A stretch of 43,980 nucleotides of DNA from a virus: the IMG/VR virus record IMGVR_UViG_3300045988_137699, positions 1 to 43,980 of that record. One strand, written 5' to 3'. Both the position numbers and the translations under genes were made by a program. The notes beneath the pieces are model-generated. The model was not told where the DNA came from, made no database searches, and was given only the letters and a program-made list of their open reading frames with translations. Within the stretch, counting starts at the first letter, position 1, and each line of letters opens with the position of its first letter. This document shows, one piece after another, positions 16,610 to 41,621 of the stretch.

Positions 16610-17719
16610 TTATCCCTTTGATATGATTCTTGCTATTGGAATAGCTTTGTGATTTATATATGTTCTGTTTGCTGCAACAGATTCTCCACTGTGAACTAAT
16701 TCCCAGTTTGCACCGTTTTTTAATTCTGCATCTGTTGGAGAATTTGAAGCCATATTTGCTTTTGTGAAAGAAATTCCAAATGGTGCGAATACTTTTCTTT
16801 GTCTTACATATAAAGTATCTTCACCACCATTTTTAGCTGGGTTTCTATCCATTTCATATGGTTTTTTTGCACCAATATTTTCATAATCAATAGCACCATC
16901 ACCTAAAACATATGATGTGTATTTTGTATATGCTTCTTGCGCTGCAACATAATTTGCTTGTCCTTCTGTTCCACTTTCTTTTACTGCTGCAACATTTTCA
17001 ACAGGCATTTCATCATCAATTATAACTATTTTTCCATTCCATGCTGCTAAATCTAATGGTCTTTCTATTCCATCAGCATCTGTATATGTTAAATGTTTTA
17101 CTAATTTTAAATTTTCAAGGTTTGTAGCAACATCACTGTGCATAAATACCATTGAAAATTTCTTTTTATTAGCACCACATGCTTGATTCATGGCTGTATT
17201 TAATGTTGTTTGACCAACTTTTGCTTCATCACCATCTTTACCTGTTATATCATATGTGTGCTTATCAACGAATTCTTTATTTTTTGTTCCTGTCATTGAA
17301 TAAATACCAGCTAATATTGCAAGTATTGTGTTTTGGTCTAAATTATCTAAATATTCAGCAACTTGGTCTTGAACATTATCCATGAAATCTTCATCTGATA
17401 CATCATCAGAAAAGTCTTTTTCTGTCCATGCTTTTGCACGACCAACAACTACTATACCACGATTAAATGTTTTTGTACTTGTTGCTGTAATATCTGTTTG
17501 ACCATCATAGTTTACTGCATCCCCATCTAATAAACCTTTCATTGCTATTTCAGCATAAACAGTTCCATTTTGTGATGTGAATACATCTCTAATATCTTTA
17601 CTTCCTTTTAATGCTTTTGATTTTTTTAATTCATTTGTTTTTAAGTTTGGTATTCTTGGATGCTCAACACCATACTTAAATGCTTTTTCGTTAAAACTCT
17701 TTGAATCGAATTTTCCCAT
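16610..17719 (-). CDS. Major capsid protein
   Basis: About 369 aa, following the scaffold gene. The ATG at 17719 has the RBS AAGGTGA 5 nt upstream; the ORF-track start at 17728 is a GTG. Confidence 0.8.
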   Translation of the reverse strand: MGKFDSKSFNEKAFKYGVEHPRIPNLKTNELKKSKALKGSKDIRDVFTSQNGTVYAEIAMKGLLDGDAVNYDGQTDITATSTKTFNRGIVVVGRAKAWTEKDFSDDVSDEDFMDNVQDQVAEYLDNLDQNTILAILAGIYSMTGTKNKEFVDKHTYDITGKDGDEAKVGQTTLNTAMNQACGANKKKFSMVFMHSDVATNLENLKLVKHLTYTDADGIERPLDLAAWNGKIVIIDDEMPVENVAAVKESGTEGQANYVAAQEAYTKYTSYVLGDGAIDYENIGAKKPYEMDRNPAKNGGEDTLYVRQRKVFAPFGISFTKANMASNSPTDAELKNGANWELVHSGESVAANRTYINHKAIPIARIISKG

Positions 17720-17743
17720 TTTAATCACCTTTTCCTTTCTTTT

Positions 17744-22708: not shown

Positions 22709-24127
22709 TTAATCAAAACTAAATCTATCACCTTGTCCAATTTTTTCTGCAATTCCTGTTGTGGCATCTTGTGCATCATCATGTGCATTTTTACCTTCTT
22801 TTTGGTATCTAATCATTGAATCATAATAATCAGGAAATCTGTCAGCCCAATTAACAGGGAAATATATGTGATTCATTACCCATGTTGAATTTGATAATAT
22901 TCTTGATTGTTTATTTTTACTCTGATAGAAGGTATTTATTATACATCTATTTGAATTAAATTTTTGTAATAATAATGTTTCAACATTCCTTGCAAATCCA
23001 CGACCACCATTATTTGATTCAATATCTGCTTCATTAACTTTATCATCAAATAACATTTTTGCGACTGCTGGTTCTGTGATTTCCATTCCATCCTTTGTAA
23101 AAATAACATTAATAATATATGCTTCTTGATTATATTCAACATAATCAATTGAACATAAATAATCATCACCTGTGTCTGCGGTATCTGTATAATTTTTAAC
23201 TTTACTATATACAGGATTACCATTTTCATCAGTTGGCAATTTTGTATATGTTTTGAAACTTGAATATAATCTTCCTTTAATATCAATAGGTTCTTGTTGA
23301 TAGTTTGCTGCTGCAATTTCTTTTGACATTGATTTTGTTTTTATTTCATAACTTCTTCTTGAAAGTATTTGTGAACAAAGCATTGTTCCATCATCTTGTA
23401 ATGCTTTATAACAAATATGTCTTACTTTCATACCAAGTTTTGTGAAATGTCTTAATGCACGACCTGCTAAATCATCACTGTGCCATCTTGTCATTATTAT
23501 GATGATTTTTCCACCTTCTTCAAGTCTTGAAAGCATTGTGTCTGTAAACCATGTCCATTGTTGTTCAAGAACATCTGCATTATTTGCTTCAAGTGCTGAT
23601 TTTATTAAGTCATCTATAATCATAAGTGTTGCACCAAATCCAGTTGATGTTCCTTTTGGTGATGTTGCTAAATAATTATTATATCCATTAACTAATGACC
23701 ATTTATTCATTGCTGAATCACCATATTTTATTGCAACATTAGGAAATATTTCAGAATATACAATTTTATCTTCATCACCTTTTTGTTCTGTTATTGTATC
23801 CCTGACATTTTTAGAAAATGTTGTTGATAATGCTTCATTATATGAACCTAACATTATTTTTTCATTTTGATTGTTACCCAAAACCCATTCAACAAAGCAT
23901 CCTGCTGTTCTTGATTTTCCATGTCTTGGTGGCATGTTTAAAACCAAAACATCTTCATCTGATTCATAAAAACTTTGAAAATCATTACATACTTTATTTA
24001 AAAACACCCTGTCTTCACGATAGAATTCAGGGGCTTTTAAATTACAATACGAAAAGAAATCCATTGCTGCATAAGCAATTTTTGCATCTTTTAAATCAAC
24101 ATCATCAATGCTTATCATTCGCAACAC
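22709..24127 (-). CDS. terL: Terminase large subunit
   Basis: Walker A-like PPRHGKS and Walker B-like LMIIDDL, plus a C-terminal nuclease region. 472 aa. It overlaps the small subunit gene. Confidence 0.85.
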   Translation of the reverse strand: MLRMISIDDVDLKDAKIAYAAMDFFSYCNLKAPEFYREDRVFLNKVCNDFQSFYESDEDVLVLNMPPRHGKSRTAGCFVEWVLGNNQNEKIMLGSYNEALSTTFSKNVRDTITEQKGDEDKIVYSEIFPNVAIKYGDSAMNKWSLVNGYNNYLATSPKGTSTGFGATLMIIDDLIKSALEANNADVLEQQWTWFTDTMLSRLEEGGKIIIIMTRWHSDDLAGRALRHFTKLGMKVRHICYKALQDDGTMLCSQILSRRSYEIKTKSMSKEIAAANYQQEPIDIKGRLYSSFKTYTKLPTDENGNPVYSKVKNYTDTADTGDDYLCSIDYVEYNQEAYIINVIFTKDGMEITEPAVAKMLFDDKVNEADIESNNGGRGFARNVETLLLQKFNSNRCIINTFYQSKNKQSRILSNSTWVMNHIYFPVNWADRFPDYYDSMIRYQKEGKNAHDDAQDATTGIAEKIGQGDRFSFD

Positions 24128-24833
24128 TTTCTTCTTTCATTTTTATTAAGTTTTTCAATTCATCTTTGGTTAAGCCTTTATATGGGTTTGGCACATTGTT
24201 ATTTACAATTACAGGTTGATTATTTTTAAACATTCCTAAATGTTGACCAAGTAAATGTAATGCTTCAACTTTGTTACATTGTTCAATTGCAATTCCATGT
24301 TTTGTATTTTTTATTGATGAAATTGCTGCTTTTTGGTCATCTGTTAATGATTTTGTATCTTTAAGGATGATGTCTTGTTCATAAACATCACCTTCTTCAT
24401 AAACATATTTTTCTTTTTCTTTATCCCATATTCTATGAATTGTTGGTCTTGTTACAACTTCAACATAATCTGTGGCATTACTAAAAGCAATCTTTGCAAG
24501 TTCTTCAACAATTTTGTCTTGTGTTATTTTTGTTCTGTCTTGTATTTCTTGTTGTCCTTTTTCAATTTGTTTCTGTACCTTAACATTTCTTAACAGTCTA
24601 CTACTTGCTGCATTAGCTGCTTCATCACTTTTACACTTGGGATATACTGCTTTATATGCTCGTGTTGCATTTAAATCAATCAAATATTCATCAACAAATT
24701 TTTGTTGTTTTGCTGTTAACTTTTTATCATTTTTGTTAGAAACTTTTTCATTTTTGTTCATTTTTTGTTCATTTTCGTTAACTTTTGTGTCGTTTTGACT
24801 CAAAGTTTCATCATTTTGTTTCATTTTTGACAT
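24105..24833 (-). CDS. terS: Terminase small subunit (Terminase_2-like)
   Basis: LTAKQQKFVDEYLIDLNATRAYKAVYP matches the terminase small-subunit signature. The probable start is MSKMKQ at 24833 with the RBS AAAGGAAG. Confidence 0.8.
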   Translation of the reverse strand: MSKMKQNDETLSQNDTKVNENEQKMNKNEKVSNKNDKKLTAKQQKFVDEYLIDLNATRAYKAVYPKCKSDEAANAASSRLLRNVKVQKQIEKGQQEIQDRTKITQDKIVEELAKIAFSNATDYVEVVTRPTIHRIWDKEKEKYVYEEGDVYEQDIILKDTKSLTDDQKAAISSIKNTKHGIAIEQCNKVEALHLLGQHLGMFKNNQPVIVNNNVPNPYKGLTKDELKNLIKMKEESVANDKH

Positions 24834-24866
24834 AATTTGCAACACTTCCTTTCTTTTTTCTTGTAT

Positions 24867-24894
24867 AAAAAATACACACATCAAAATGTGTGTA
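24867..24894 (-). terminator. Rho-independent terminator between the late regulator and terS
   Basis: On the minus strand: TACACACAT-tttg-ATGTGTGTA (9-bp stem, 24873..24894) followed by TTTTTT (24867..24872). Confidence 0.6.
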
Positions 24895-24907: not shown

Positions 24908-24930
24908 TTATATTATATACTATAATATAA
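24908..24930. promoter_or_regulatory. AT-rich inverted repeat TTATATTATA-3 nt-TATAATATAA upstream of the terminator and terS
   Basis: Read directly. It contains TATAAT. It could be a late promoter or an activator site. Confidence 0.35.
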
Positions 24931-24962
24931 AAACAAATGGCATACAAGGGCATTGAATGACA

Positions 24963-25385
24963 TCAAGTGCCACTTTTATCAAAAGGTACTTTCACCTTTT
25001 CAAGTGCTGAATCATGAATTCGGTACATTTGCCTTTTTGAATAATTCATCTTCACACATATTTCATCCCATTGTAAAAATATTAAGTATCTATATTTTAA
25101 AACTAATTTTTCATTAACATCTTCGATTTGATTTATTACATCACGAATTTGTTTTTTTAATGCAATAAAATCTTCAATTTCTGCATCAATCTCATTTTCT
25201 AAATCTATTATTTGAGAAATAATATCAATTATTCTATCATTTGAAGGACTTCCTTGAACTCTTTCTTGGGTCATATTTCCTGATATTGATGTTGACAATG
25301 CTCTTAATGCTTCAAGTTCTTCTTTGTCACATTCAATTTGTTCATTTAATTTATAAGCCTGTTTCAAATATTGTTTAGCATTCAT
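24963..25385 (-). CDS. Putative late-gene transcriptional activator (DUF1492 / sigma-70 region-4-like, RinA/ArpU-position)
   Basis: 140 aa immediately upstream of terS. The C-terminus (KLVLKYRYLIFLQWDEICVKMNYSKRQMYRIHDSALEKV) resembles a sigma region-4 HTH. Confidence 0.55.
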   Translation of the reverse strand: MNAKQYLKQAYKLNEQIECDKEELEALRALSTSISGNMTQERVQGSPSNDRIIDIISQIIDLENEIDAEIEDFIALKKQIRDVINQIEDVNEKLVLKYRYLIFLQWDEICVKMNYSKRQMYRIHDSALEKVKVPFDKSGT

Positions 25386-25410
25386 ATTTTCACCTTCCTA
25401 TTAACTTTTG

Positions 25411-25730
25411 TGATTTCACCTTGAACCTTGAACTTTCACTTTGAACCTTTTAAAACTTTGATTTTTCAATACTTAAATAAAAAATTATTTTAAAAAAGGT
25501 TCAAGGTTCAAGGTTATTCTTATATTATTTATTTTTTATAAAAACATTAAAATTTAATGATTTTATAAAATACTATTTTAGTTATTAAATTGACATTATC
25601 TTGAACCACCTTGAACTTACACTCTACATTTATTGATTTTACTATGTTTCAAGGGGTTCAATGTTACTATATTTCACCTTGAACCTACCTTGAACCACTT
25701 CTACTGTTCAATACTGTTCAGAACTGTTCA
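25411..25730 (-). repeat. Module A: intergenic array of about 11 CCTTGAACC/GGTTCAAGG motifs plus 3 phased ACTGTTCA repeats; paralogous and inverted relative to 42228..42466
   Basis: Motif copies (0-1 mismatch) start at 25419, 25426, 25439, 25498, 25505, 25599, 25609, 25646, 25655, 25677 and 25688. ACTGTTCA is at 25703, 25713 and 25723. Confidence 0.85.
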
Positions 25731-26213
25731 TATTTTTATAATATAAGGTTCTTTTTTGTTATATTCAGTTATTAAATTGTTATATATTTTTTGTAATGTG
25801 TCTGTATTTCCTTCAACATTTTCCTTTATCATTTTTGCCCTTACTCTACAATATATCTTGTAATAATCAAAAGGCATATCTATAAAAACTCTTTGACCAA
25901 TTTTAGGTATATAATTTATAATTCTTTTATCTTCATTCCAATCTGTGTGTTGCATATGTCCATCACATTTTTCACAATTTATCATAAAAGGTGTTACACC
26001 ATCTCTACTATTCCAAAGTATTTCTGTTTTCCTACATTTTTCACATTTGTATTTCATTAAACAATATGCTTCTGCATGTTTATATTTTGATTCCATGTTT
26101 TTCATATTCCTTCCATACACAATTCTTTTCAGCAAAACAATAATTTTCATCTTTATTAAATTTCCATCTATTTTTATGTCTTTCACAATTTTTCTTATTA
26201 TCACATTCATCAT
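25728..26213 (-). CDS. Zinc-ribbon protein, unknown function
   Basis: CEKCRKTEILWNSRDGVTPFMINCEKCDGH contains two CxxC pairs. The true start may be internal (MKNMESKY). Confidence 0.4.
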   Translation of the reverse strand: MMNVIIRKIVKDIKIDGNLIKMKIIVLLKRIVYGRNMKNMESKYKHAEAYCLMKYKCEKCRKTEILWNSRDGVTPFMINCEKCDGHMQHTDWNEDKRIINYIPKIGQRVFIDMPFDYYKIYCRVRAKMIKENVEGNTDTLQKIYNNLITEYNKKEPYIIKI

Positions 26214-26230
26214 TTACACAATATGTCACA

Positions 26231-26557
26231 TCATGTTTTGCTTTCTTCAATTCCATTTCCTTTTTTCCCTTCTATTAACCTTAATACAAATTTACATTCT
26301 TCAATTCTTCCTAAATAATATGTATTGTGATTAATGTCGTACATTTTTTCATAAAATTTAACATCTGCATTCATAATAATCTTTAAACTGTCTTTGAAAT
26401 CACCTGATGAATTCTGAATATTATTTATAGCATCCATAAATTGTGGTTCATCATTTTCTTTGGCTGCAACAAGTAATGCTGCTATTGTATAACCAATTAC
26501 TACTCCTAAAAATAAACAAATTATATATCCCATTTTAATCACCTTACCTTTCATCAT
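26231..26557 (-). CDS. Hypothetical protein with an N-terminal TM helix
   Basis: ORF track; hydrophobic segment GYIICLFLGVVIGYTIAALLVAA. Confidence 0.4.
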   Translation of the reverse strand: MMKGKVIKMGYIICLFLGVVIGYTIAALLVAAKENDEPQFMDAINNIQNSSGDFKDSLKIIMNADVKFYEKMYDINHNTYYLGRIEECKFVLRLIEGKKGNGIEESKT

Positions 26558-26889
26558 AAGTATTTAATTTCATTTGCATTAAATATTTCTTTTAATATTT
26601 CATCAATTTTATCCTTATGTAATTCAACTACATAACTTTTATCTTCTTCATAATATCCTGCAATCAATGCTTTTTCTGTAATATTTTTACCTAACATTGT
26701 AAGTTGAATATATGATTGATTATCAATTTTCATCAAATCTGAAAGATTAGTTTTACTTGCTGTTTCACCTGAATGAAAATAAACAAATGCTGAATCTCCA
26801 TCTATTCTTTTAATTTTTCCTATTTCACATTTATATATGTTTCCATTTGAATCTTTTGGAACATAAACAACTAAATCACCATTATTCAT
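26554..26889 (-). CDS. Hypothetical protein
   Basis: ORF track; 4-nt overlap with the downstream gene. Confidence 0.4.
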   Translation of the reverse strand: MNNGDLVVYVPKDSNGNIYKCEIGKIKRIDGDSAFVYFHSGETASKTNLSDLMKIDNQSYIQLTMLGKNITEKALIAGYYEEDKSYVVELHKDKIDEILKEIFNANEIKYL

Positions 26890-26902
26890 AATTACCTTCT
26901 TT

Positions 26903-27496
26903 CTATGTATTTTTTACTTTACTTGTATACATATCAGCTGTGTGTGTAAATAATACATTTTCATATTTTCTTATTGCTTTATCATAATTATCCCATTGGT
27001 CTTGTCCTTCATAAGCTCCCATATGAAATCTAATACAAAATAATTCTTCTTCTGTAAGTGTTATAAATTGGGATAATAACATTATTGATTTTTCGCCATG
27101 TCCTTTTAAAACAGTATTTGAATTGTATTCAAAATGAACTTCTTTTCCTTTAACTTCATTAGTTCCCATCATTGTTTCACCTGGTTCATCAACAATTGTT
27201 AAATAATTATCAATTTTACACAAATCATGAAACATACCTATTATATAAGGACTTTCAGGTCTTTTCCATTTTAAATTTAATCTGTCAGTCATATCCAATA
27301 GCACCTGTGTTACTTCATATGAATGGTCAAACAACCCACCTTCATATGCACCATGATATTTTGTAGATGCTGGTTGTGTAAAAAATTTATTTTCAATTAA
27401 CCAATTATAAAAATCTTTGGTAATTATTTCTTTCATTAATCCATCAAATAATTCTATTCTTCTATTGGTTGTCAAATTTTTTTCATATTCTAACAT
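26903..27496 (-). CDS. HD-domain phosphohydrolase
   Basis: YHGAYEGGLFDHSYEV and GMFHDLCK provide the H...HD...D metal-binding pattern. Confidence 0.65.
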   Translation of the reverse strand: MLEYEKNLTTNRRIELFDGLMKEIITKDFYNWLIENKFFTQPASTKYHGAYEGGLFDHSYEVTQVLLDMTDRLNLKWKRPESPYIIGMFHDLCKIDNYLTIVDEPGETMMGTNEVKGKEVHFEYNSNTVLKGHGEKSIMLLSQFITLTEEELFCIRFHMGAYEGQDQWDNYDKAIRKYENVLFTHTADMYTSKVKNT

Positions 27497-27513
27497 TTAA
27501 TTTCACCATCCTA

Positions 27514-27726
27514 TCAAACTTCTTTTACTTCTATTTCAATTACATTAATTTCTAAATTAAATGTCATTTTGTTATTTACTCTTTCATATTCAACAGAATC
27601 ATGAACATAATTTGTTAATTCATTTGCAACCATTATTGCATCTTGAACATCTCCATTTACTTCAAATTCTGTTATGTATTCATCATTTTCCACATCTTTT
27701 AATTGTATAATCATTAATAATCCCAC
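27514..27726 (-). CDS. Hypothetical protein (70 aa, acidic)
   Basis: ORF track; same orientation as the operon. Confidence 0.35.
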   Translation of the reverse strand: MGLLMIIQLKDVENDEYITEFEVNGDVQDAIMVANELTNYVHDSVEYERVNNKMTFNLEINVIEIEVKEV

Positions 27727-27965
27727 CTTTTTTCTTTATTTTTGTTTTCTATTACTGAAAGAATATCAGTAAAAGTAATATGTAAGTTTTCTTTTCCTGT
27801 CTGTTCTTGTTCTAGTGTAAAAGCTGTCATTAAATAAAATTTATTATGAAATTTTATTATAAAGTCATTTCCATCAACTAATACAGGTGTTGATACTTTA
27901 AAACCTATTAATTTATATAATAATTTAATTAATAATTTTTTCATAACTAATTCCTTTCTAATCAT
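27714..27965 (-). CDS. Hypothetical protein
   Basis: ORF track. The probable start is MKKLLIKL at 27944 with the RBS AAAGGAA. Confidence 0.35.
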   Translation of the reverse strand: MIRKELVMKKLLIKLLYKLIGFKVSTPVLVDGNDFIIKFHNKFYLMTAFTLEQEQTGKENLHITFTDILSVIENKNKEKRWDY

Positions 27966-28086
27966 TACTAGATAAAAATGTAATCATTGCAACAATAAAT
28001 CCCCATACATATTGCCAATTGGCTGGTATATAATTATTTATTATTGCACCAATTGTGCAGCATAGTATTATTTTTAAAATAGTCAT
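27958..28086 (-). CDS. 42-aa hydrophobic micro-protein (MTILKIILCCTIGAIINNYIPANWQYVWGFIVAMITFLSSND)
   Basis: Hand translation of the gap; two hydrophobic stretches. Confidence 0.3.
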   Translation of the reverse strand: MTILKIILCCTIGAIINNYIPANWQYVWGFIVAMITFLSSND

Positions 28087-28098
28087 ATTAAATCCTTT

Positions 28099-28518
28099 CT
28101 ATGCAACTGAATCAGCAAATGCAATCGCCATTCGTTTTGCATCTTCCAATGTTTCTGCTTTGAAACCAACTGGAAGTGATAAATTTTCATCAGGATGTTC
28201 TTGTAAATATTCATCCGTAAATCCACTTTCTGCACAACATGAACCTTCTTCTACAACTGAACCTATTCCAAAACCAAAGATTGCACGATGTGACCAACCA
28301 TACCATTTTTGTTCTTTTTTATTAAATCCTATTGAACAAACTTTGTTATCCTTATATGTTTGGATTTGTGAAAGTCCATATTTTTCAACATACATTTCAA
28401 AATCTTTAAGTGTTCCAATATATTTGTCATCCTTGTTATATACAAAAATCATCTTAATACCTTGTGATTCTTCAATTTTAATTTTATATTCTTCTAATAT
28501 TTCAGATTTTATTTCCAA
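28099..28518 (-). CDS. Hypothetical protein
   Basis: ORF track. Preferred over the antisense ORF 28055..28543 on composition and operon orientation. Confidence 0.45.
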   Translation of the reverse strand: MEIKSEILEEYKIKIEESQGIKMIFVYNKDDKYIGTLKDFEMYVEKYGLSQIQTYKDNKVCSIGFNKKEQKWYGWSHRAIFGFGIGSVVEEGSCCAESGFTDEYLQEHPDENLSLPVGFKAETLEDAKRMAIAFADSVA

Positions 28519-28925
28519 CCTAATTCACCTACTTTCTTTATAAAATATTCTTTTATTCCTTTTTCTGTATCCCACATTTTTGCATGGTCATATTCAAATT
28601 TTGATTTTTCTGTATCTAATCTCAATATTTCTTTTGCCATTAAATCAATTATTTTATCTTTATTTTTCATTTTTTCTTTATCATAAGAATGCATACTAAT
28701 TAAATTTAACATTTTATTACTTCGTTTAAATTCATTTCTTGTAAATCTTTTTATTTCTCTTTGTTGGCTTTCTATTAGATTTAATAATAAATAAATTTCA
28801 TTATATGTTAATCTTGCATAACTTCTGTCTTTAACAATAAAATGTATTTTTCCCCATTCTTTTAAAGAATTTACTATCTTAATAGCTTTCTTTTCTTCTT
28901 CACTCATTGGCATCTTCTTCACCAT
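28509..28925 (-). CDS. Hypothetical protein
   Basis: ORF track. Confidence 0.4.
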   Translation of the reverse strand: MVKKMPMSEEEKKAIKIVNSLKEWGKIHFIVKDRSYARLTYNEIYLLLNLIESQQREIKRFTRNEFKRSNKMLNLISMHSYDKEKMKNKDKIIDLMAKEILRLDTEKSKFEYDHAKMWDTEKGIKEYFIKKVGELGWK

Positions 28926-29154
28926 CAGCTAACACACTATTTGCTGAAACTGCCATTGGTGCAAGTGTTTGTCCTTCCTGTTGAATATATATTTTTCTTG
29001 TTTTCTTGATTTTTTCAAGTTCAATATCATCTAATTCCCAACATGTTTCAATTGCTGGTGTTTCATCTTCATATTTATATCTTGTACCTGGTAAATCATA
29101 ACAATCAGGTCTTTTAAAAGTTGTGTTTGTTGTTTTTCTTTTTATTGGTTTCAT
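28900..29154 (-). CDS. Hypothetical protein
   Basis: ORF track. Confidence 0.35.
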   Translation of the reverse strand: MKPIKRKTTNTTFKRPDCYDLPGTRYKYEDETPAIETCWELDDIELEKIKKTRKIYIQQEGQTLAPMAVSANSVLADGEEDANE

Positions 29155-29500
29155 AATTTACTACCACCTTTCTTAATTTACTTGTAATTTCATCAATAGT
29201 TTTAAAAATATCAATCATATAGTTTGCAACAAAATCTGCAACAATTTCATCATTCCAATCCACTTGTAATAATCCATAACTTTCAATATATGCATGTGTT
29301 ATTTCATGATATAAAGTATATTTAAGTGAATCATCATTCAAATCATTCCTGATGTATATATTTTTTGTCACAAAATCTGTTACACCACTATGTGTTTCAC
29401 CATCATCCATAATTAAATATTTGGAATGTTCATCTATTAAGTGAACATTATATGTATTATTATGAATTTTTATTTGTATTGTTGTTTGTAACTCTAACAT
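29114..29500 (-). CDS. Small putative zinc metallopeptidase (HExxH)
   Basis: LYHEITHAYIESYG contains HEITH. Confidence 0.45.
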   Translation of the reverse strand: MLELQTTIQIKIHNNTYNVHLIDEHSKYLIMDDGETHSGVTDFVTKNIYIRNDLNDDSLKYTLYHEITHAYIESYGLLQVDWNDEIVADFVANYMIDIFKTIDEITSKLRKVVVNYETNKKKNNKHNF

Positions 29501-29762
29501 TTTTGATTTCCTTTCTTAACATTTCCAACAAAATCATCCATTCTTGCTTGTCACATTCATCACCATATGAAATTGCTGTTTCTATATCTCTAATCATAAC
29601 CGCTTTGTCTTTACCTGATAACAAATGCATATTTTTCTTTATAATTTCACAAGTCCACCCAACGATGTATGTTCTTCTTCCTAGTGCATATCTTTCTGCG
29701 GATACTAATATCATTGATATATCTTCCACTTCACCATTAAATTTTATTTGCATTTTTATCAC
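29460..29762 (-). CDS. Hypothetical protein
   Basis: ORF track; contains the motif ERYALGRRTYIVGW. Confidence 0.4.
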   Translation of the reverse strand: MIKMQIKFNGEVEDISMILVSAERYALGRRTYIVGWTCEIIKKNMHLLSGKDKAVMIRDIETAISYGDECDKQEWMILLEMLRKEIKNVRVTNNNTNKNS

Positions 29763-30038
29763 CTATTTACAATGTTTTGTTATTTCTTCCATGTCAACAT
29801 CATTATCATTTAATTCATCATCAAAACCTTCCTTGATAATTTCTAATGTTTCAAGTTTTGTTTCTAATTTTTCAATTTCATTTTCTGTTTCAATTGTGCT
29901 TTTATTATGTTTTTCATTTATTTTAAGCAAATCATTCTGATATGCAATATCTTTCTTTACTTGTTCTATACTTTCAATTAAATATTCATTATGGTTATAT
30001 ATCACTTGAATCAAATCATCTTTTTCCACCTTTTTCAC
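29763..30038 (-). CDS. Hypothetical coiled-coil protein
   Basis: ORF track. Confidence 0.35.
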   Translation of the reverse strand: MKKVEKDDLIQVIYNHNEYLIESIEQVKKDIAYQNDLLKINEKHNKSTIETENEIEKLETKLETLEIIKEGFDDELNDNDVDMEEITKHCK

Positions 30039-30720
30039 CTTCTTTCTTGAATTTTTCTTCTAATTGTTCAACACTATAATCTGCCCTGAATTGGTTATAT
30101 GATTTTTTGTCCATTTCTTTTAATTCCTGCCATAATTCAGGATAGTATGTATATAAAATTTTTAATTCTTTAAGATTTTTTAATGGACAACACCAACAAC
30201 TTAATCTGTCAAAATGTTCATATAATCCATCCCAATAAAATCCTTTTTCATAACAACATTTTAGGCAATCTGCTTCTGTCATTTCATATTCAACTAATGG
30301 GTATCTTTTATCCCTAATTCTTTTTGGTTCATCATAAGCAATTCCAATATATTCTGTGTAACCTTCGTTTTTATATTTCTTTAAATAATCATTGATAACT
30401 TTGGTTTTTAAATTACTTGTACACCATCTGCAAAGCATCGTTGCCCAACCATATCCTTTTTTACCTTTGTTTTTTCCTTTTGTTTTTTCGTGTTCAAACA
30501 TATAATAATCAAAACTTTTTTCTGCTTTTATTCTAGTAATTTTCTTGTTATAATGTTTTTGAATATAATCATCAAATTTATTTATATGGTCAATCATTTG
30601 TGGAAAATCTTTACCTGTATCAGCAAAAATAATTTCATCAACCCACCATCCATCTTCTAGCATTTTCAATGTCATTGCTGTGCTATCTTTACCACCACTA
30701 AAATTGATTATATGTTTCAT
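30016..30720 (-). CDS. PAPS-reductase-family PP-loop ATPase
   Basis: The N-terminus NFSGGKDSTAM is the SGGKDS PP-loop. There is a C-terminal Cys cluster, RLSCWCCPLKN. Confidence 0.7.
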   Translation of the reverse strand: MKHIINFSGGKDSTAMTLKMLEDGWWVDEIIFADTGKDFPQMIDHINKFDDYIQKHYNKKITRIKAEKSFDYYMFEHEKTKGKNKGKKGYGWATMLCRWCTSNLKTKVINDYLKKYKNEGYTEYIGIAYDEPKRIRDKRYPLVEYEMTEADCLKCCYEKGFYWDGLYEHFDRLSCWCCPLKNLKELKILYTYYPELWQELKEMDKKSYNQFRADYSVEQLEEKFKKEGEKGGKR

Positions 30721-31595
30721 TGCACATCACCTTCTTTCAATCCTTTAAAAATATGTGCAATTACATCAACTGTCCAACCATCACCAATTACATTTGATGC
30801 TTGATGTTTTGTAAGCATTTTTGTATAACCAATAGGTAATGTCTGACCTTGTTCTAATTCTTCGGTTGTTAAATATCTGCAAAAATCTTCAAATTCAATT
30901 AGTCCTGCATTTTTCCATCTGTCTTGCCTTGTGGTTATACAATTTATTTTGGTTGCATTTGTTATATTTGGACAATTTCCATTTATACCATCACCCCACA
31001 TTTTAATTCTTGAAGGTGTTTTGTTAACTTTAAATTCCTTGCATTTTTCATAGTCTTTGCATATGTAATCTTGAAAATTTATATGTCTATCTTGTGGCTG
31101 TGTTACATTTGGAATGTTTGTCCAATAATATCTATTGCGATTTTGATAACTAACCAAATTTGAATTTATTTCAATTGGTTCAACACCAAGAATACTGCTA
31201 ATAAGCTGTTTGTCTTGTTTACTCATATTTGCAACATTTTCTAATAAAAAATATTTTGGTTTTAATTGTTTCAATATTCTTACATATTCATAAAACAAAC
31301 TACTTTTTTGACCATCCAATCCTTCCCTTTTATCTTTTACCATTACAACTGCAATTGATAAATCTTGACAAGGACTTCCACCAATCAATAAATCAATTTT
31401 ATCCAACTTACTTAAATCTAATTTTGTAACATCACCAATTTGAATTGTGTTTGGGAAGTTTTCTTGTGTGCATTTAATTGCTGATGGTTTTATTTCACTT
31501 GCATAATATTTGTCAACTTTCATTCCTGCCCTTTGAAGTGCAATTTGTCCACAACTTATTCCATCAAATAGACTTAACACATTCATGCTTATCAT
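30717..31595 (-). CDS. DNA (cytosine-5)-methyltransferase
   Basis: Motif I LFDGISCG, motif IV GGSPCQDLS, motif VI LLENV. The probable start is MNVLSLF at 31586. Confidence 0.85.
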   Translation of the reverse strand: MISMNVLSLFDGISCGQIALQRAGMKVDKYYASEIKPSAIKCTQENFPNTIQIGDVTKLDLSKLDKIDLLIGGSPCQDLSIAVVMVKDKREGLDGQKSSLFYEYVRILKQLKPKYFLLENVANMSKQDKQLISSILGVEPIEINSNLVSYQNRNRYYWTNIPNVTQPQDRHINFQDYICKDYEKCKEFKVNKTPSRIKMWGDGINGNCPNITNATKINCITTRQDRWKNAGLIEFEDFCRYLTTEELEQGQTLPIGYTKMLTKHQASNVIGDGWTVDVIAHIFKGLKEGDVQ

Positions 31596-31791
31596 TTCCT
31601 TCCTTTACTTTTTCCCAATTAAATTTGGAATATTTTGATTTGGCTTGTCTTTCCCTTCCAATCAATCTTCCGCTTCTTGTACAAATTTGATACCACCATA
31701 AAATATCAGTTCTATATCTTACACACATTATCCAATTTTTAATGAATGGGTTATATGTTATTTTATTTACATGAAATTCTGTTTTTGGCAT
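31564..31791 (-). CDS. Hypothetical protein (75 aa, basic)
   Basis: ORF track. Confidence 0.35.
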   Translation of the reverse strand: MPKTEFHVNKITYNPFIKNWIMCVRYRTDILWWYQICTRSGRLIGRERQAKSKYSKFNWEKVKEGNDKHECVKSI

Positions 31792-31817
31792 ATCAATTCC
31801 CCCTTATCTTTTGTATT

Positions 31818-33719
31818 TTATTGACCTTCTGCTTTTATGAATATTCTGCATTTTTTACCTTGTATTTTCTTATCAATAATTACAAAATTAAAATATTTTT
31901 TGACTTGTTTTGAAAATTCCCCACTTGATAATTCTTGAAGACTATTTCTAATACAAAATTCTTTATATTTTGTATAAACTTGATTTGTTGGTTCATTTTC
32001 AATATTTATATCTTCTGCTTCACATTCTTTGAAGAATCCTATAATTGGATTATTTGTTTCTTCATATTCATTCAATTCATTTTCAATTTTTGCTGATGTT
32101 GTGAATTTTCTGTTTTTTAGAACTCTTTTCAATCCTGCAATACCTAATGTAATTAAATATTCCATTGATTCTTGACCTTGAAGTGAATCCCCAATGAATG
32201 GTCTGAAATTTGGATTATCAGAAGTGAATTTTGCATTGAATGGTACAATTACAAGCCTTCTTAATATTGCACTTGAATCCCTTCCTTTTCCTATTCTTGG
32301 AATAGTGTTTGCACTAAATACTAATTTCACATAAGGTTCAAAATCAAATTTTGGCTGTCCTTTTTGTTCAGCATCTATTGTTTCACCTGTTACTATCTTT
32401 TTGAATTCTGCTGCATCTGTTATAAATTCATCAGAAATATCATCACCTATATTTGCAAGTTTTCCAAATAACATTACAGTTGAAAATCTATCATTCAATT
32501 TCTTTAAATCAAGAACAGAAATATTTTTCTTTCCTAACATTGCTTTTATTAAATTCAAATATGTACTTTTACCATTTGAACCTGTTCCAGTTAATATGAA
32601 TGCTTTTCCAAGTTCATTTCTTCTATACATACAATAACCAACCAATTCTTCAAGTAATGACCTGATTTCTTTATCATCACATGCAATGTTATTTAACACT
32701 TCATCTGTTAATTCAAAATAAGCATTTGGGTTATAATCCCAATCAATTTTATTTGTAATAACAAATTCAGGTGAAAATTGAAAAAACTTGTCTTCTAATA
32801 TGTCATATATTCCATTTCTAAATGCAATTAAATTTGCTGGTGCTGGTCTTGTATTTTCTCTTATCATAATATCTAAATATGACATTACTTCTGTTCTTTT
32901 GGCTCTGTTTAGTTGTGGTATATGTTTTATCATTGCTGATTCAATTTCCTGTTGTCCTGCAACATATATTCCATCTTTGTATAAATGCAATTGATTGTTT
33001 ATTCTTACAATGTGATGATTATTTTTCAAAAATACTGCAAATTTATCAAATAAGAACGATGAACCTTTGAAAAATACAGGTTTTGCAAATGCTTCATCAC
33101 GAATTATGACATCAACTTCATCATCTGTTAATGGCTCTTTTAAAACATATTTATTAATAAGTTTTATTGTTTCTCTTGCTTCTTCTTTTGAAAAGTCATT
33201 TGCTTGTAAAGTTAATATATAATTAAATAATGCTTGATTTCTTCCATCACCTGCTGACATATTCAAAAAATCCATTGTTGTTTTTATTGGCATCAACCAT
33301 TTTGGAAGTTCTTGTGCTTCTTCTTTTTTTCCTGTTGTGTCATATAAAATTGGTCTATCTTCATTATTAAATTTCAAGATTGAATATGCATTTCGTTTTC
33401 CAATTTTAATATCTGATGTAATTCCAAGTGCAAGTGTTGCATGTGTGCGATTACTTTCAACATTTGTATTTTTGAATAAGAAATGTTTTCCCCTAGTTGT
33501 TTTATATACTCTACATTTAAGTTTTAAATCCTGAACAATTTTAAATAATATTTCACTTTCATCAAAATCATCAATATCAATTAGTATTGTATCTGTTGCA
33601 AGAATACCAGCAAATTCAGGTAATGATTGAACTTGTTTATAATTTTTGAAATCTGTTCTTCCTTTGAACTTTTCCATACATTTTTTATTTTTGGTTTCAA
33701 CATATCCTTTGAAGAACAT
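31818..33719 (-). CDS. Primase-polymerase / D5-P4-type SF3 helicase fusion
   Basis: N-terminal prim-pol-like region (ILIDIDDFDE) and Walker A LTGTGSNGKSTYLNLI, typical of the P4/D5 family. 633 aa. Confidence 0.75.
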   Translation of the reverse strand: MFFKGYVETKNKKCMEKFKGRTDFKNYKQVQSLPEFAGILATDTILIDIDDFDESEILFKIVQDLKLKCRVYKTTRGKHFLFKNTNVESNRTHATLALGITSDIKIGKRNAYSILKFNNEDRPILYDTTGKKEEAQELPKWLMPIKTTMDFLNMSAGDGRNQALFNYILTLQANDFSKEEARETIKLINKYVLKEPLTDDEVDVIIRDEAFAKPVFFKGSSFLFDKFAVFLKNNHHIVRINNQLHLYKDGIYVAGQQEIESAMIKHIPQLNRAKRTEVMSYLDIMIRENTRPAPANLIAFRNGIYDILEDKFFQFSPEFVITNKIDWDYNPNAYFELTDEVLNNIACDDKEIRSLLEELVGYCMYRRNELGKAFILTGTGSNGKSTYLNLIKAMLGKKNISVLDLKKLNDRFSTVMLFGKLANIGDDISDEFITDAAEFKKIVTGETIDAEQKGQPKFDFEPYVKLVFSANTIPRIGKGRDSSAILRRLVIVPFNAKFTSDNPNFRPFIGDSLQGQESMEYLITLGIAGLKRVLKNRKFTTSAKIENELNEYEETNNPIIGFFKECEAEDINIENEPTNQVYTKYKEFCIRNSLQELSSGEFSKQVKKYFNFVIIDKKIQGKKCRIFIKAEGQ

Positions 33720-33739
33720 AATTCAATCACCCCCCTTCT

Positions 33740-33952
33740 TTATTTGTTATCCCATCGCAAATAATTTTCAATAAATTCTTCAAGTTGTGGTGTTAGCATA
33801 TTTTGTCTTGCTAATTCTCTTTTAAAACTTGCAACATCTTCAATTTTTTCCCTGTCATCATATTCAACATCAAAATCACTATCAAAGACAAAATCTTCAA
33901 AGCCATCATCACCAACTAATAAATGTAATACACTTTTATTATTTTCATTCAT
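33740..33952 (-). CDS. Hypothetical acidic protein
   Basis: ORF track. Confidence 0.35.
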   Translation of the reverse strand: MNENNKSVLHLLVGDDGFEDFVFDSDFDVEYDDREKIEDVASFKRELARQNMLTPQLEEFIENYLRWDNK

Positions 33953-33954
33953 AT

Positions 33955-35670
33955 CTATATCACCCCAAAATCCTTTAATCTTTTTTGTGCAAGGTCAACA
34001 TACCATGCTTTGTCCAATTTCTTTGGAACTTTCACACCATTTACTTCATCATTATAAATAAAGCAATGTTCAGGTGAATTTGATATTTTTGCAGGTCTTC
34101 CTGTTGTTGCATGTATTTTTGTAACACCCTTGTCTTCTTCATTTGTTGATGCAAATATCCTGATGCATTTCTCTTTTATATATTCATCACCATGTAAAAT
34201 GTGTGTATATTTATTTGAAATTTTTGTTACCAATTGAAATTCTTTCAAATCATCACATTCATTGATTGTTTGTTCAACTGGAATATTGTGAACCATGTAT
34301 TCAACTAATGCTTTGTTAATAATTGGTAAATCATAATCAAGATTATTTAATTTCTTAACATATGCACCTTTTGATTTGTATTTTCCATTAGCATCAACAA
34401 TTATGTAATTGTTAACATCTTTCTGAAATACTTTTCTATATTCATCAAATTCCAATGTTAGATGTGTTCTTTGTTCCCATTCATATGCAATATCATCAAT
34501 CATGTCAAAATCTTCATATTTGTTCATTTTTACAAGAATACCATCAGTATTTGATTGGATAATTTGGCAATGTGGTTCTAATTTTTCAATCAAATCTAGT
34601 AATAACAATTGACCATATACACAAACTCTATTTGCTTGAAGTGGGTCATATAATCCATTGTTTTTATCTTTCATTACACCATATGTTGAATTTAATACTA
34701 ATTTTAATGGTGCTTGTAATGGGTTCTTTTCTTTTTTGTATTTCAACCTTGTATGATAAATTTCTTCATATTTTTTTGGGTCTTTCATGTTTCTGCTATG
34801 TAAATTATATTGAATCATAAGTGATGGATATAGTGATGCAACATCCATGTTTAGGAAATAACCTTCACCACTATATTGTGGAATTGCACCATGGACACCA
34901 CCCCAACCAAATTGATGTGGAACACCTGCAATCATAATGTCTAGTTGATTCTTTTTTCCATTCTTTTCATAACATCTGTTGTCTTCATTTTTATACCAAT
35001 CAACAACTTCTTTATATTTTTCAATTTTTAAAGTTGAAGGGAAATCAATATCAAATTCATCATCATGTTCTTTTGGTGTTGCTTCAAGTATTATTGCAGC
35101 CAATTGTGATTTTGTTTTTGAAATTAATGAAAGATTCAATGGTTTTCCTTGACATGCTAGTTTTACCAATCCCATACATGCTTCAAAATCTTCTTTTCTT
35201 TGTAAAAATACTTCAATTGTTTGTTCAACATCGTGTCTACAATATTTTACAGTTTCTTGAATTTCTTCTTCTGTCAATTTTCTATCTATATCAAAAGGAA
35301 CTGATGATTCCTTAATGTTATTTCCCATAAAACCTTCAAATGATTTCAAACCCCTATCTATATTTGACATTACATCATAATTATTAAGTGGTATATTTCT
35401 AAATAATGATGAAAATTTCCATCCTGGATTACCTTTGACAATGATGTAATCATTTATTCTTTTTGGGTCAAAACCACAAAGGATGCCTTTCAGAATGTAT
35501 TGGTCATAATGTCTTGAATTAAATCCAACCCAAATATCATTTACATTTTCATTGTAAATTCTTTCTAATTCATCAGGATTATTAATGATGACATGTTCCT
35601 TCTTTTTAGTCATATCAATAATCACAACCAACCAATCTTCTTTGAATACTTCAAAGTCATAAAATAACAT
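33955..35670 (-). CDS. Family B DNA polymerase
   Basis: Exo I FYDFEVF, motif A DVASLYPSLM, motif B KLVLNSTYGVM, motif C SNTDGILV. Confidence 0.8.
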   Translation of the reverse strand: MLFYDFEVFKEDWLVVIIDMTKKKEHVIINNPDELERIYNENVNDIWVGFNSRHYDQYILKGILCGFDPKRINDYIIVKGNPGWKFSSLFRNIPLNNYDVMSNIDRGLKSFEGFMGNNIKESSVPFDIDRKLTEEEIQETVKYCRHDVEQTIEVFLQRKEDFEACMGLVKLACQGKPLNLSLISKTKSQLAAIILEATPKEHDDEFDIDFPSTLKIEKYKEVVDWYKNEDNRCYEKNGKKNQLDIMIAGVPHQFGWGGVHGAIPQYSGEGYFLNMDVASLYPSLMIQYNLHSRNMKDPKKYEEIYHTRLKYKKEKNPLQAPLKLVLNSTYGVMKDKNNGLYDPLQANRVCVYGQLLLLDLIEKLEPHCQIIQSNTDGILVKMNKYEDFDMIDDIAYEWEQRTHLTLEFDEYRKVFQKDVNNYIIVDANGKYKSKGAYVKKLNNLDYDLPIINKALVEYMVHNIPVEQTINECDDLKEFQLVTKISNKYTHILHGDEYIKEKCIRIFASTNEEDKGVTKIHATTGRPAKISNSPEHCFIYNDEVNGVKVPKKLDKAWYVDLAQKRLKDFGVI

Positions 35671-35728
35671 TCCTAGTCACACCCTTTCTTATTTTGAAGG
35701 GTGGAATTTCACCACCCTATTTATTCAA

Positions 35729-36223
35729 TTAATCTTCTAATGTGAAAACTTCTGTAATTTCGTATTTGCTGAAATCACCTTTACCTTTTTTGTAATCAAG
35801 TGCAAATTCAAAATTATCATCTATTGCTTCAAATACATCCATAATTAAATTACTATATTGTTTATATGTTTTGAATTCAATTACTGGTGCATCATCACCC
35901 ATTTCTGAAACCATCATTCTTAATAATTCATTTACAATATGTATTTGGAATCCTTGTGTAATTACTTGATTCATAAATATCATTGAACCTTTGTATTCTC
36001 CATCTGATACTATTTTGAACCAAATTGAAACCATTGGGTCACCTTTTGAACTTGGTTTTAATTCCATTTGTTGAATTGCAACTTCATATTCTCCATGTGG
36101 CACTTCTTTATATGTAGTTTGTCCACCATTTTCTGCTGCTTCTGCAACATCTTTTGCTAATCCTTCCACATCAACTTCTTTATCCCATTTATCAAATATA
36201 TTTTTTTCTGACATAATAATCAC
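35729..36223 (-). CDS. DUF669-like putative ssDNA-binding protein
   Basis: 164 aa. Its position next to an AAA_24-type ATPase is the usual Sak4/DUF669 pairing. Confidence 0.5.
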   Translation of the reverse strand: MIIMSEKNIFDKWDKEVDVEGLAKDVAEAAENGGQTTYKEVPHGEYEVAIQQMELKPSSKGDPMVSIWFKIVSDGEYKGSMIFMNQVITQGFQIHIVNELLRMMVSEMGDDAPVIEFKTYKQYSNLIMDVFEAIDDNFEFALDYKKGKGDFSKYEITEVFTLED

Positions 36224-36249
36224 CTTTTAACCTTTCTTTTATTTAAAAT

Positions 36250-36459
36250 TTATCTTCCATTTGCTGCTGAAACTATTTGAATCGCTTGTTCAGGTGTAAA
36301 ACCTGCTTTTATATGTGCATCAAATAATTCCTTATTTGTTTTTGCTAAATCTTGCATAGCTTTTTGCTTTTCTTGTTCTTTTTCTTCTTTGCTTTTTGAT
36401 GATGTTTTGAATAATTCTTCAACTAATTCATCAAAAGCTGATTTTTCAATTCTTGGCAT
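36250..36459 (-). CDS. Hypothetical protein (69 aa)
   Basis: ORF track. Confidence 0.35.
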   Translation of the reverse strand: MPRIEKSAFDELVEELFKTSSKSKEEKEQEKQKAMQDLAKTNKELFDAHIKAGFTPEQAIQIVSAANGR

Positions 36460-36462
36460 ATT

Positions 36463-38340: not shown

Positions 38341-38699
38341 TATTTTTTCACCCCCTTATCAAATTTGAATTGTTCTTCATATGTAATAAATTGTTTACAT
38401 GTTGGTCTTTCTTTTAGTTTTAAAATGAATTTTTTAAATTCTTCAAATTGATTTGGATATAATACAAAACCAATTCCATTGGCTTGTCTTATTTTTTCAA
38501 TATTCCAAAGTTGTAATTCTGATGGCTTACCATGTTCACCTTTTAGTTCAATACCTAAAAAATAACCATTACAACAAATTAATAAATCAGGTATTCCACT
38601 TTTGGTATATGCTGCACCACCCCAATATTTGATGAACCAACATTTTTCATTTTCAAGAAATTTTTTAACCTTATTTTCAAATTGTTTTTCTGTTGCCAT
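38340..38699 (-). CDS. VRR-NUC domain nuclease
   Basis: GIPDLLICCNGYFLGIELKGEHGKPSELQ gives the D...ExK nuclease core. 119 aa. Confidence 0.7.
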   Translation of the reverse strand: MATEKQFENKVKKFLENEKCWFIKYWGGAAYTKSGIPDLLICCNGYFLGIELKGEHGKPSELQLWNIEKIRQANGIGFVLYPNQFEEFKKFILKLKERPTCKQFITYEEQFKFDKGVKK

Positions 38700-39148
38700 T
38701 ATTTATCACCTGCTTTCACTTCAATTTTTATATAAGATTTTTTATTTGAAGTTTTTGAATATTCTTTTGCAATATCAGGTTGTTCTTTTTTTAATCTTAT
38801 ACTATCTATTGATGTTGAAGTTGAAGGTGCAAAATAAGTAATTTTCATTATGTCATTATCAAATTTTGTAACACCATATTTTTCCATTGCTTCAAGTAGT
38901 TTTTCTTTCATTGTTTTTTCTTGTTCTTCTATCTGTTTTTTTGCAATTGAAATTTGTGCAATAGTATTTATAATTTCTATATTTGCATTTTCAAAGACTT
39001 GTAAACTTGTTTCACCATTCATTTCTGAATTTCCACAAGAAATTGGTTTTAAATTACAAGATGATGTACAATGTTCTAATTCTTCACATTCTATACAGCA
39101 ATGTTCATATTCAAATGGACAACCAGCTTGTTTACATTTAATTCCCAT
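38699..39148 (-). CDS. Cys-rich N-terminus plus coiled-coil protein (possibly Gp157-like)
   Basis: The first 40 aa contain 10 Cys. The C-terminal half is helical. It lies between the helicase and the nuclease. Confidence 0.35.
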   Translation of the reverse strand: MGIKCKQAGCPFEYEHCCIECEELEHCTSSCNLKPISCGNSEMNGETSLQVFENANIEIINTIAQISIAKKQIEEQEKTMKEKLLEAMEKYGVTKFDNDIMKITYFAPSTSTSIDSIRLKKEQPDIAKEYSKTSNKKSYIKIEVKAGDK

Positions 39149-39149
39149 T

Positions 39150-41141: not shown

Positions 41142-41161
41142 TTTATTTTCCTTCTTTCTTT

Positions 41162-41179
41162 TGTATCTTTCAAGATACA
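41162..41179. promoter_or_regulatory. Palindrome copy c: TGTATCTT-tc-AAGATACA
   Basis: Read directly; 8-bp arms. Confidence 0.8.
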
Positions 41180-41180
41180 G

Positions 41181-41595: not shown

Positions 41596-41621
41596 TTTTT
41601 TCACCTTCCTTCGATTTGTTT

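Follow-up and report, generated by a model that had tools for sequence, protein, structure and literature searches.

Two repeat-rich intergenic modules

The window analysed here was the whole IMG/VR virus record IMGVR_UViG_3300045988_137699, a stretch of 43,980 nucleotides. Two of its intergenic gaps were filled with short repeats of the GGTTCAAGG type. Gap A, occupied by module A, preceded the gene of a late transcription regulator, and gap B, occupied by module B, preceded orf42467 and the tyrosine integrase gene int (Table 1). An earlier note, made from the sequence alone, had proposed that one factor, or one RNA or DNA structure, acted on both gaps and co-controlled the late genes and the integrase. 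The analysis reported here led to a different explanation, which is based on sequence comparisons: the two gaps are probably two copies of a replication origin, the repeats of which would serve as iterons bound by the primase-helicase of the phage itself.

When at most one mismatch was allowed, 26 copies of GGTTCAAGG or CCTTGAACC were recorded in the window against 4.32 expected (standard deviation 2.26, maximum of 13 in 100 shuffles). Eleven of them were located in gap A (25419-25696) and eight in gap B (42228-42458), in agreement with the numbers given by the earlier note (~11 and 8), and the other seven were scattered singles. The repeat unit had a 7-nt core and a 9-nt consensus. The homology of the gaps as whole modules in opposite orientation, which had also been claimed, was confirmed: the reverse complement of gap A aligned with gap B at 74% column identity, and the longest inverted repeat of the whole window (25505-25543 against 42345-42383, 39 nt, 90%), including the runs TTAATAACTAAA and TTTTATAAAAAATAAATAATATA, joined both gaps. 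The modules were inverted relative to each other and 17 kb apart. The gene labels of the earlier note, a late regulator (DUF1492/phrog_36) and a tyrosine integrase, were correct. Its statement that a repeat lay next to the ribosome-binding site in each module held for module B, where the two overlapped, but not for module A, where the last GGTTCAAGGTGAAA ended ~20 nt ahead of the real Shine-Dalgarno sequence (GGAAGGTGA).

Both modules were built around an AT-rich centre, which in module A contained the stretch most conserved between the two. Blocks II and III, pointing in opposite directions, placed at least two repeats on each side of this centre in both modules. At the outer edge of module A, CTGTTCA repeats were also present, and six copies of them were found in the relative L003 (related genomes and loci are given L numbers). 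Since the core TGTTCA was the iteron word in L034 and L286, these edge repeats may represent another set of iterons or the relic of one.

The earlier note had named conservation of the array in related phages as its own test, and the array was indeed kept in relatives. The module-specific pattern was recorded in 13 stretches of IMG/VR and in 1 of 185,579 species genomes. The latter match was a prophage in a metagenome-assembled genome of uncultured Clostridia; the module was therefore not a host-derived dispersed repeat, a possibility that the earlier note had raised. Nucleotide searches of gaps A and B against 50,697 deposited phage genomes gave no match, and a literature search for the repeat motif returned chance matches only. 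The module was always located 5' of a DUF1492 late regulator gene or of an orf42467 homologue, with two single exceptions: in L010 the next gene encoded an ArpU-like late regulator, with TerS and TerL behind it, and in L019 it was another small gene before int.

The layout in the relatives was constant and started with block I (2-3 direct and 1-2 inverted copies) and block II (2 direct copies), followed by ~85 nt of AT-rich DNA, block III (2 inverted copies), a spacer of ~50 nt and block IV (1-3 direct copies), after which the Shine-Dalgarno sequence came. The order of iterons, AT-rich centre and inverted iterons was retained in all relatives examined, with different repeat words. The unit was GGTAGAC in L006, GGTTACG in L033 and in 52 IMG/VR stretches, TGTTCAAG in L034 and TGTTACA in L237, and AAGTCAAG, CATTCAAG, GTTGAAGG, TACTGAT, GTTACGC and TGTCACG were found in other loci. 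GGTAGAC and GGTTACG had a common ACGGT core and occurred together in one array of L408.

The scans for GGTAGAC-N0-4-GGTAGAC and for three GTAACA units were unspecific, as the matches listed were mostly unrelated phages. The unrelated IMG/VR phage contigs L292, L318, L330, L336, L348 and L359 also showed an origin-like layout, in which three GTAACA units faced three inverted units 65-180 bp away. Judging from such contigs, the GTAACA layout may be widespread beyond the phage family of the window.

Covariation of the repeat word with the primase-helicase

The primase-helicase of the window was a homologue of PriRep5 of the Staphylococcus aureus pathogenicity island (SaPI) SaPI5 (PDB 7OLA; E 1.8e-40 over residues 243-609). 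Its C-terminal 140 amino acids aligned with the C-terminal domain of 7OLA (residues 637-746), and a weak match to the RFX winged helix was recorded at residues 576-610. In SaPIs, the initiator binds both sides of the origin, melts the centre and loads itself as a helicase. The winged helix in the C-terminal domain of the SaPI Rep proteins recognises short iterons, and the origin is composed of 6-12 iterons and a central AT-rich region, with at least two iterons per side in opposite directions (PMC9371898).

A metagenome scan with the C-terminus of the primase yielded 80 loci, 51 of which had an array downstream. An open reading frame with the late-regulator signature was located no more than 160 nt past the array in 34 of the 51. 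Within these 51 loci, the repeat word was predicted by the last ~14 residues ahead of the final R-I/V-F motif, i.e., by the wing of the winged helix. The wing DKK[IV]xG[KT]K.R[IV][FY] (DRK in one locus) was paired with GTTCAAG in 22 loci with 11 distinct wings, including IIDKKIQGKKCRIF of the window, and one further DKK-type wing (DKKIDGKKRRVF, L458) scored TCTTGAA. The wings VVNKTI[QK]NKKYRIF, DKWI[SP]R[LF]GKCRVF and DKTIKGKKYRIF were paired with AAGTCAA, GTTGAAGG and TCAAGAT, respectively, in 5 loci each, and the wing [ND]KWLNG[RK]KHRIF with CATTCAAG in 8 loci. The wing V[VK]KxNG...RIF was paired with the GTAAC and ACGGTT types, and several other pairings were single cases.

The AAGTCAA group, the CATTCAAG group and a 9-locus subset of the GTTCAAG group had the common helix SKQVNRILNM and differed essentially in the wing. 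In near-identical backgrounds, the wings NKTIQNKKYRIF, KWLNGKKHRIF and DKKISGKKYRIF accompanied the words AAGTCAAG, CATTCAAG and GGTTCAAG, respectively. The loci L431 and L427 hardly differed in the module scaffold or in the late regulator gene, and only the units (AAGTCAAG versus GGTTCAAG) and the wing differed. When pairs of near-identical pre-wing sequences were compared, the same wing came with the same repeat in 10 of 11 pairs and a different wing with a different repeat in 26 of 31 (Fisher p 1.9e-5, although the covariation p-values overstate the independence of the cases because the array and the primase gene were linked at 0-6.5 kb and the loci were related).

The distance from the stop codon of the primase gene to the array was 4 nt in L454 and 169 nt in L420 and reached 6.5 kb, with a median of ~2.5 kb over the 51 loci. 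Because distances down to 4 nt occurred, the SaPI-like position directly 3' of the initiator gene was plausibly the ancestral one of the array. Accessory genes, among them those of the Tad6 anti-Thoeris protein and the cytosine methylase, now separate the primase gene of the window from module A. As a separate observation, the L237-type loci encoded an AAA_24 protein of 585-641 amino acids that was distinct from the primase.

Further, the other candidate binders were investigated for discordance, i.e., for the same DNA-reading surface occurring with different repeats, or the reverse. The cI-like protein was rejected, since L283 and L241 had the same recognition helix QKSAIRKYE with the repeats GGTTCAA and TGTAACA, respectively, more than 10 different helices occurred with GTTCAAG, and the helix and the repeat were discordant across more than 30 loci. 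In L033, L034 and L181, the cI helix went with GTAGA palindromes in the switch region. No GGTTCAAGG repeats, as would be expected of CI/Cro-type operators, were present in the cI-cro switch region of the window (41641-41772). The dual helix-turn-helix (HTH) protein and the DUF739-like protein were 88-90% and 91% identical across repeat classes, respectively, and the N-terminal domain of Int was almost identical in L248 and L228 despite different repeats. TerS was rejected as well, since L408 encoded a TerS of an unrelated family and had the same repeats as L169. The p85 family showed no covariation signal and was not universal. The orf42467 protein was dropped as a binder because it was absent from L019, the L181-type loci and L210/L211, which retained the module. 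Its family comprised 279 homologues, usually encoded between cI and int, with a conserved IGKIKLQGRKH hairpin. The family had no Pfam match, and a confident AlphaFold model of the protein (predicted local distance difference test score of 92.6) had no fold match in PDB or BFVD.

The late regulator was not a suitable reader either, since the same repeat occurred with different regulator helices (the window versus L003 and L013) and even with an ArpU-type regulator (L010). Late regulators of the RinA, ArpU, LtrB and LtrC types have 7-nt direct repeats after the late regulator gene and before terS (PMC3753634). In the window, four direct TGNCA units (TGGCA, TGTCA, TGCCC and TGCCA) with an exact 10-nt period were found at 24925-24968; they began just ahead of the late regulator stop codon and reached into the terS gap, and a TATAAT-like box came after them, ahead of terS. 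In L003 and L013, which had a different late regulator helix, TGNCA was replaced by TGTTA while the upstream GGTTCAAGG repeats were unchanged. The TGNCA units are likely the binding repeats of the late regulator, and their position fits the published one (PMC3753634). The GGTTCAAGG repeats resembled the published ones in being short (7 nt) and next to a late regulator gene in phages of Gram-positive bacteria. In contrast, they were located before this gene, in both orientations, and did not co-vary with the regulator.

Operator arrays were considered as an alternative to the origin. In such a case, a DNA-binding protein of the phage would bind the repeats on either side of an internal promoter. 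By looping or occlusion, it would gate two promoters, those of orf42467-int and the late regulator gene, and protect both from read-through of the early and cI operons; as a variant, the initiator itself would be the repressor, as a plasmid Rep is at promoter-overlapping iterons. Both modules are situated exactly where the early-to-late and the cI-to-int read-through needs control, this location 5' of the late regulator gene and int was kept across mosaic relatives, and the repeats extended up to the Shine-Dalgarno sequence. A -10-like TAATAT was kept at a fixed distance of 8 nt from block III even in diverged modules, and activation of the phi11 int promoter by the late regulator RinA was reported at one time but not confirmed in vivo (PMC3152322). 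However, neither the cI, dual-HTH and DUF739-like proteins nor the late regulator co-varied with the repeats, and the late regulator had its own distinct repeats (TGNCA x4, period 10), which changed together with it. A scan with a consensus promoter revealed no excess of promoter-like sites in gap A over shuffled sequence. The sole co-varying protein was the replication initiator, whose family uses exactly this layout as an origin, and the operator explanation was considered unlikely.

The same results bear on the proposal of the earlier note. A trans-acting reader common to both modules fits the data, but the co-varying factor was the primase-helicase rather than a transcription regulator. 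The co-control of late genes and integrase found no support: the co-varying protein was a replication initiator, the layout was that of a SaPI-type origin, and no evidence for control was obtained.

The repeats could also act at the RNA level, either as a hairpin of blocks III and IV in the 5' untranslated region (5'-UTR), by which the ribosome-binding site would be masked or the transcript stabilised, or as a long hairpin of blocks II and III that serves as an RNase III site or insulator in read-through transcripts. The stems described by the earlier note were indeed predicted, with 16 bp in module A (free energy of -32.3 kcal/mol, z -4.5) and 10+7 bp in module B (-24.4 kcal/mol, z -3.8), the latter covering AAGG of the Shine-Dalgarno sequence. 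However, block IV, the copies of which are needed for the 5'-UTR stem, was missing in L031, L006, L033, L034 and L237, and the stem was therefore not conserved. In L237, the spacers between the units were non-complementary while the units were perfect, and in L033 the period of the units differed between the arms. Perfect units with non-complementary spacers and the lost block IV thus argued for a sequence-specific reader of double-stranded DNA and not for an RNA structure. A single repeat word was present in every stem and in both modules. Such uniformity is expected of inverted binding sites but is not needed for a structure, and the word tracked the winged helix of a protein. Neither gap had an Rfam 15 match at the gathering score, the sole match in the window being RT-17 at 3364-3458. 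An RNA element was thus regarded as very improbable.

Other kinds of sites, namely arm-type sites of the integrase (attP), a pac site of the terminase or a mobile repeat resembling a miniature inverted-repeat transposable element (MITE), were given the least weight and appeared extremely unlikely. Repeats in both orientations over ~290 bp do resemble attP arms or pac sites, and module A was located upstream of the terminase genes and module B near int. However, in the integrated copies L030, L031, L034 and L490, host genes were situated directly 3' of int, and attP therefore lies after int and module B is not attP. The int-lysin gap was flanked by conserved TTAGTAACA pairs, candidate arm sites, whatever the repeat type, and neither the N-terminal domain of Int nor TerS tracked the repeats. 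A mobile repeat does not agree with the single prophage among the species genomes that matched the module pattern. Prophage junctions and covariation tests already contradicted this whole group of explanations. Recombination between modules A and B, by which they would border an invertible segment, was also rejected, as the inverted arrangement was seen in no relative.

The candidate origin and its second copy

Module A looks like a phage origin of the SaPI type because its repeats follow the wing of the primase-helicase and not the other DNA-binding proteins tested. We propose that the C-terminal winged-helix domain of the primase-helicase reads the GGTTCAAGG units as iterons. Module A would be the phage origin, which is found directly 3' of the primase gene in compact relatives and is separated from it by ~6 kb of accessory genes here. 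Module B would be a paralogous second copy in the lysogeny cassette beside cI and int, acting as a second origin, as a helper site similar to crr of phage P4, or as a site that titrates the initiator or pairs with it. Binding of the repeats, melting of the centre and firing of the origin are what we infer from the layout, the homology of the initiator, its covariation with the repeats and the lack of covariation of the other proteins.

Several findings, besides the limited independence of the loci mentioned above, weigh against an origin. The primase gene of the window was ~6 kb from module A and ~8.5 kb from module B, and was adjacent to neither. Blocks I and IV exceeded the minimal SaPI layout, and the units had 7-9 nt compared with 5-6 nt in SaPIs. 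The conserved -10-like TAATAT was located in the centre, 8 nt ahead of block III, and the last repeats were near start codons; a promoter within the module is possible, and so is a secondary effect on the late regulator gene or int when the initiator binds. A further discrepancy concerned module B. Both L490 and L492 had an AAGTCAA-type wing and an identical module A, and their module B was composed of GTTCAAG (L490) or CATTCAAG (L492). Since module B of these genomes mismatched the resident initiator, the case for an origin is stronger in module A than in module B.

Modules A and B had the same repeat word in 6 of 8 genomes, i.e., in the window, three IMG/VR genomes, L408 (ACGGTT type) and L493. 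In L490 and L492, module B changed along with the cI/int cassette; as read from these comparisons, module A follows the initiator, and exchange of the lysogeny module brings a different module B with it. A TCAAG core was common to the three words of module B, and for each of them a cognate sister wing was known. Module B may be cross-bound more weakly, or it may serve as a helper, a control site or a decoy. It was also proposed that module B, rather than being a redundant origin, is a functional iteron locus of the lysogeny cassette that binds the initiator and couples replication with int expression and with the late regulator promoter at module A, and that the sister-type module B of L490 and L492 is a decoy origin, but this proposal is tentative and rather doubtful. 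If it were true, the coupling might involve handcuffing or a P4-like pairing of origins over the 17 kb of the early region. A decoy module B would sequester initiator made by competing phages and thereby amount to superinfection exclusion at the level of replication.

The candidate origin was compared with those of SaPIs and other phage-inducible chromosomal islands (SaPIbov1, SaPI1 and SaPI5; PDB 7OLA, 7PDS). Both had a homologous self-loading helicase initiator of superfamily 3 (SF3), the homology extending to the C-terminal winged-helix domain. In both, an AT-rich centre was flanked by short iterons, no fewer than two per side and in opposite directions, and the iteron number was similar (8-11 here). 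Specificity resided in the C-terminal domain of the initiator and varied between elements, which was seen here by covariation only and for module A. In contrast to the islands, two copies were present per genome, inverted and 17 kb apart; the origin was not immediately 3' of the rep gene, although it was so in L454 and L420; the units were longer (7-9 nt versus 5-6 nt) and extra outer iteron blocks were present; and the element was a temperate phage of gut Clostridia, not a satellite.

The α primase-helicase of satellite phage P4 has a C-terminal origin-binding domain, which reads one short repeat (TGTTCACC). This repeat is present in two cis regions, ori and crr, which are several kb apart and flank the initiator gene, and the initiator can bridge both; crr, made up of two direct repeats of 120 bp, does not duplicate ori. 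For the long-range loop suggested by the earlier note, ori and crr would be a precedent. In the window and in 5 other genomes, two separate iteron-bearing cis regions had one word, which may correspond to the arrangement of P4; in 2 genomes the words differed. Unlike in P4, the modules were full paralogues, each with its own AT-rich centre, and module B may carry a non-cognate iteron type. The incA locus of P1 and incC of F are iteron arrays outside the origin that bind the same initiator, and promoter-overlapping iterons turn the initiator into a repressor; the initiators concerned are RepA/RepE-type proteins and not SF3 helicases. Module B and the repeats by the start codons may act like such control loci.

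The module pair is best read as a duplicated, inverted origin away from the initiator gene, which occurs in a large prophage family and has a readable code from wing to iteron. The replication origin would get a testable location in prophages of gut Clostridia that form a very common family; thousands of close homologues were recorded for each of two linked proteins, the polymerase-like and the AAA_24 protein, in hosts such as Enterocloster, Coprococcus and Anaerobutyricum. A tractable relative was the prophage of [Clostridium] asparagiforme DSM 15981. Three wings in near-identical proteins, matched with three iteron words with a common TCAAG core, form a natural specificity series that could reveal how the winged helix of SF3 initiators reads DNA. 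The second, sometimes non-cognate copy near int raises the question of origin duplication, origin pairing or competition between phages. In annotation, the repeat-rich gaps 5' of the late regulator and integrase genes of these phages should not be called operators.

Genome plan and further features

The ends of the window were identical over 85 bases (1-85 and 43896-43980), and the record was therefore a circular assembly with a real genome length of 43,895 bp. The G+C content was 27% (AT 72.6%). The window is a temperate siphovirus-like phage, which belongs to gut Clostridia and is not a satellite. The main features are listed in Table 1.

Table 1. Position of the genes, modules and iteron blocks in the window.
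Feature	Position	Strand	Remarks
Late genes	24884 down to 140	-
TerL	22709-24127	-
TerS	24105-24884	-
Late transcription regulator	24963-25385	-	DUF1492/phrog_36, LtrB type; gene downstream of module A
Module A, origin-like	25386-25727	-	11 repeats; bordered by the last early gene and the gene of the late regulator
Module A, iteron block IV	25419-25447	-	3 direct copies (gene orientation); block closest to the late regulator gene
Module A, iteron block III	25498-25513	-	2 overlapping copies, inverted in gene orientation, beside the AT-rich centre
Module A, AT-rich centre	25514-25598		85 bp, 91.8% AT; candidate DNA-unwinding element
Module A, iteron block II	25599-25617	-	2 copies, period 10, opposite to block III
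Module A, iteron block I	25646-25696	-	2 direct and 2 inverted copies
CTGTTCA edge repeats	25703-25732	-	3 direct repeats, period 10, outer edge of module A; overlap the stop codon of the upstream gene
Early genes	25728-41640	-
Tad6 anti-Thoeris protein	28099-28518		E 3e-49; accessory early gene in the primase-to-module-A interval
3'-Phosphoadenosine-5'-phosphosulfate (PAPS)-reductase-like protein	30016-30720		Accessory early gene, same interval
C-5 cytosine methylase	30717-31595		Accessory early gene, same interval
Primase-helicase	31818-33719	-	Pri-Rep type, 633 amino acids, proposed initiator; Pfam D5_N, DUF5906, Pox_D5
C-terminal winged-helix region of the primase-helicase	31821-32063	-	Residues ~553-632; helix FSKQVKKYF, wing IIDKKIQGKKCRIF
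Dual-HTH protein gene	40502-40948
cI-like HTH gene	41773-42183	+
Module B, paralogous origin-like module	42184-42466	+	8 repeats; bordered by the cI-like gene and orf42467-int
Module B, iteron blocks I and II	42228-42290	+	4 direct copies
Module B, AT-rich centre	42291-42374		84 bp, 88.1% AT
Module B, iteron block III	42375-42391	+	2 inverted copies
Module B, iteron block IV	42431-42458	+	2 direct copies, the last overlapping the orf42467 Shine-Dalgarno sequence
orf42467	42467-42793	+	Fold not assigned; with the integrase gene, downstream of module B
Tyrosine integrase	42795-43823	+

Some further features of the genome were recorded. The lysin (140-1141) was an Amidase_2 enzyme with three CW_7 cell-wall-binding repeats, which accounted for the internal direct repeats at 145-592 with a spacing of 156-162 nt. 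A diversity-generating retroelement spanned 2282-5491. It was composed of a reverse transcriptase gene (RVT_1, 2282-3373), an RNA of the Rfam family RT-17 (63 bits; 3364-3458 on the minus strand) and two repeats of 86% identity, the template repeat at 3478-3592 and the variable repeat at 3697-3811. The variable repeat was located at the 3' end of a tail-fibre gene (3680-5491).

A probable attP was located between int and the lysin gene (43824-43895 and 1-139). Direct-repeat pairs of the TTAGTAACA type (about 43826-43845 and 117-136) flanked a hairpin and a conserved ATTATATCATA core there. Such pairs were also found 3' of int in L030, L031, L033 and L006, and in integrated copies the host genes started right after them. 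Ahead of int, a conserved leader was present in some relatives (L181 4600-4715, L006 3290-3420), with the translated pattern ...IWTMQ..Y.HS(F)L...KGM, which could be a leader peptide or a structured RNA.

Four GTATCT-N4-AGATAC palindromes were found at 17745, 40931, 41163 and 41623, each just 5' of a ribosome-binding site. They were situated at the transcript start of the early promoter, ahead of two early genes and ahead of the gene 16610-17728, and could be operators or RNA hairpins.

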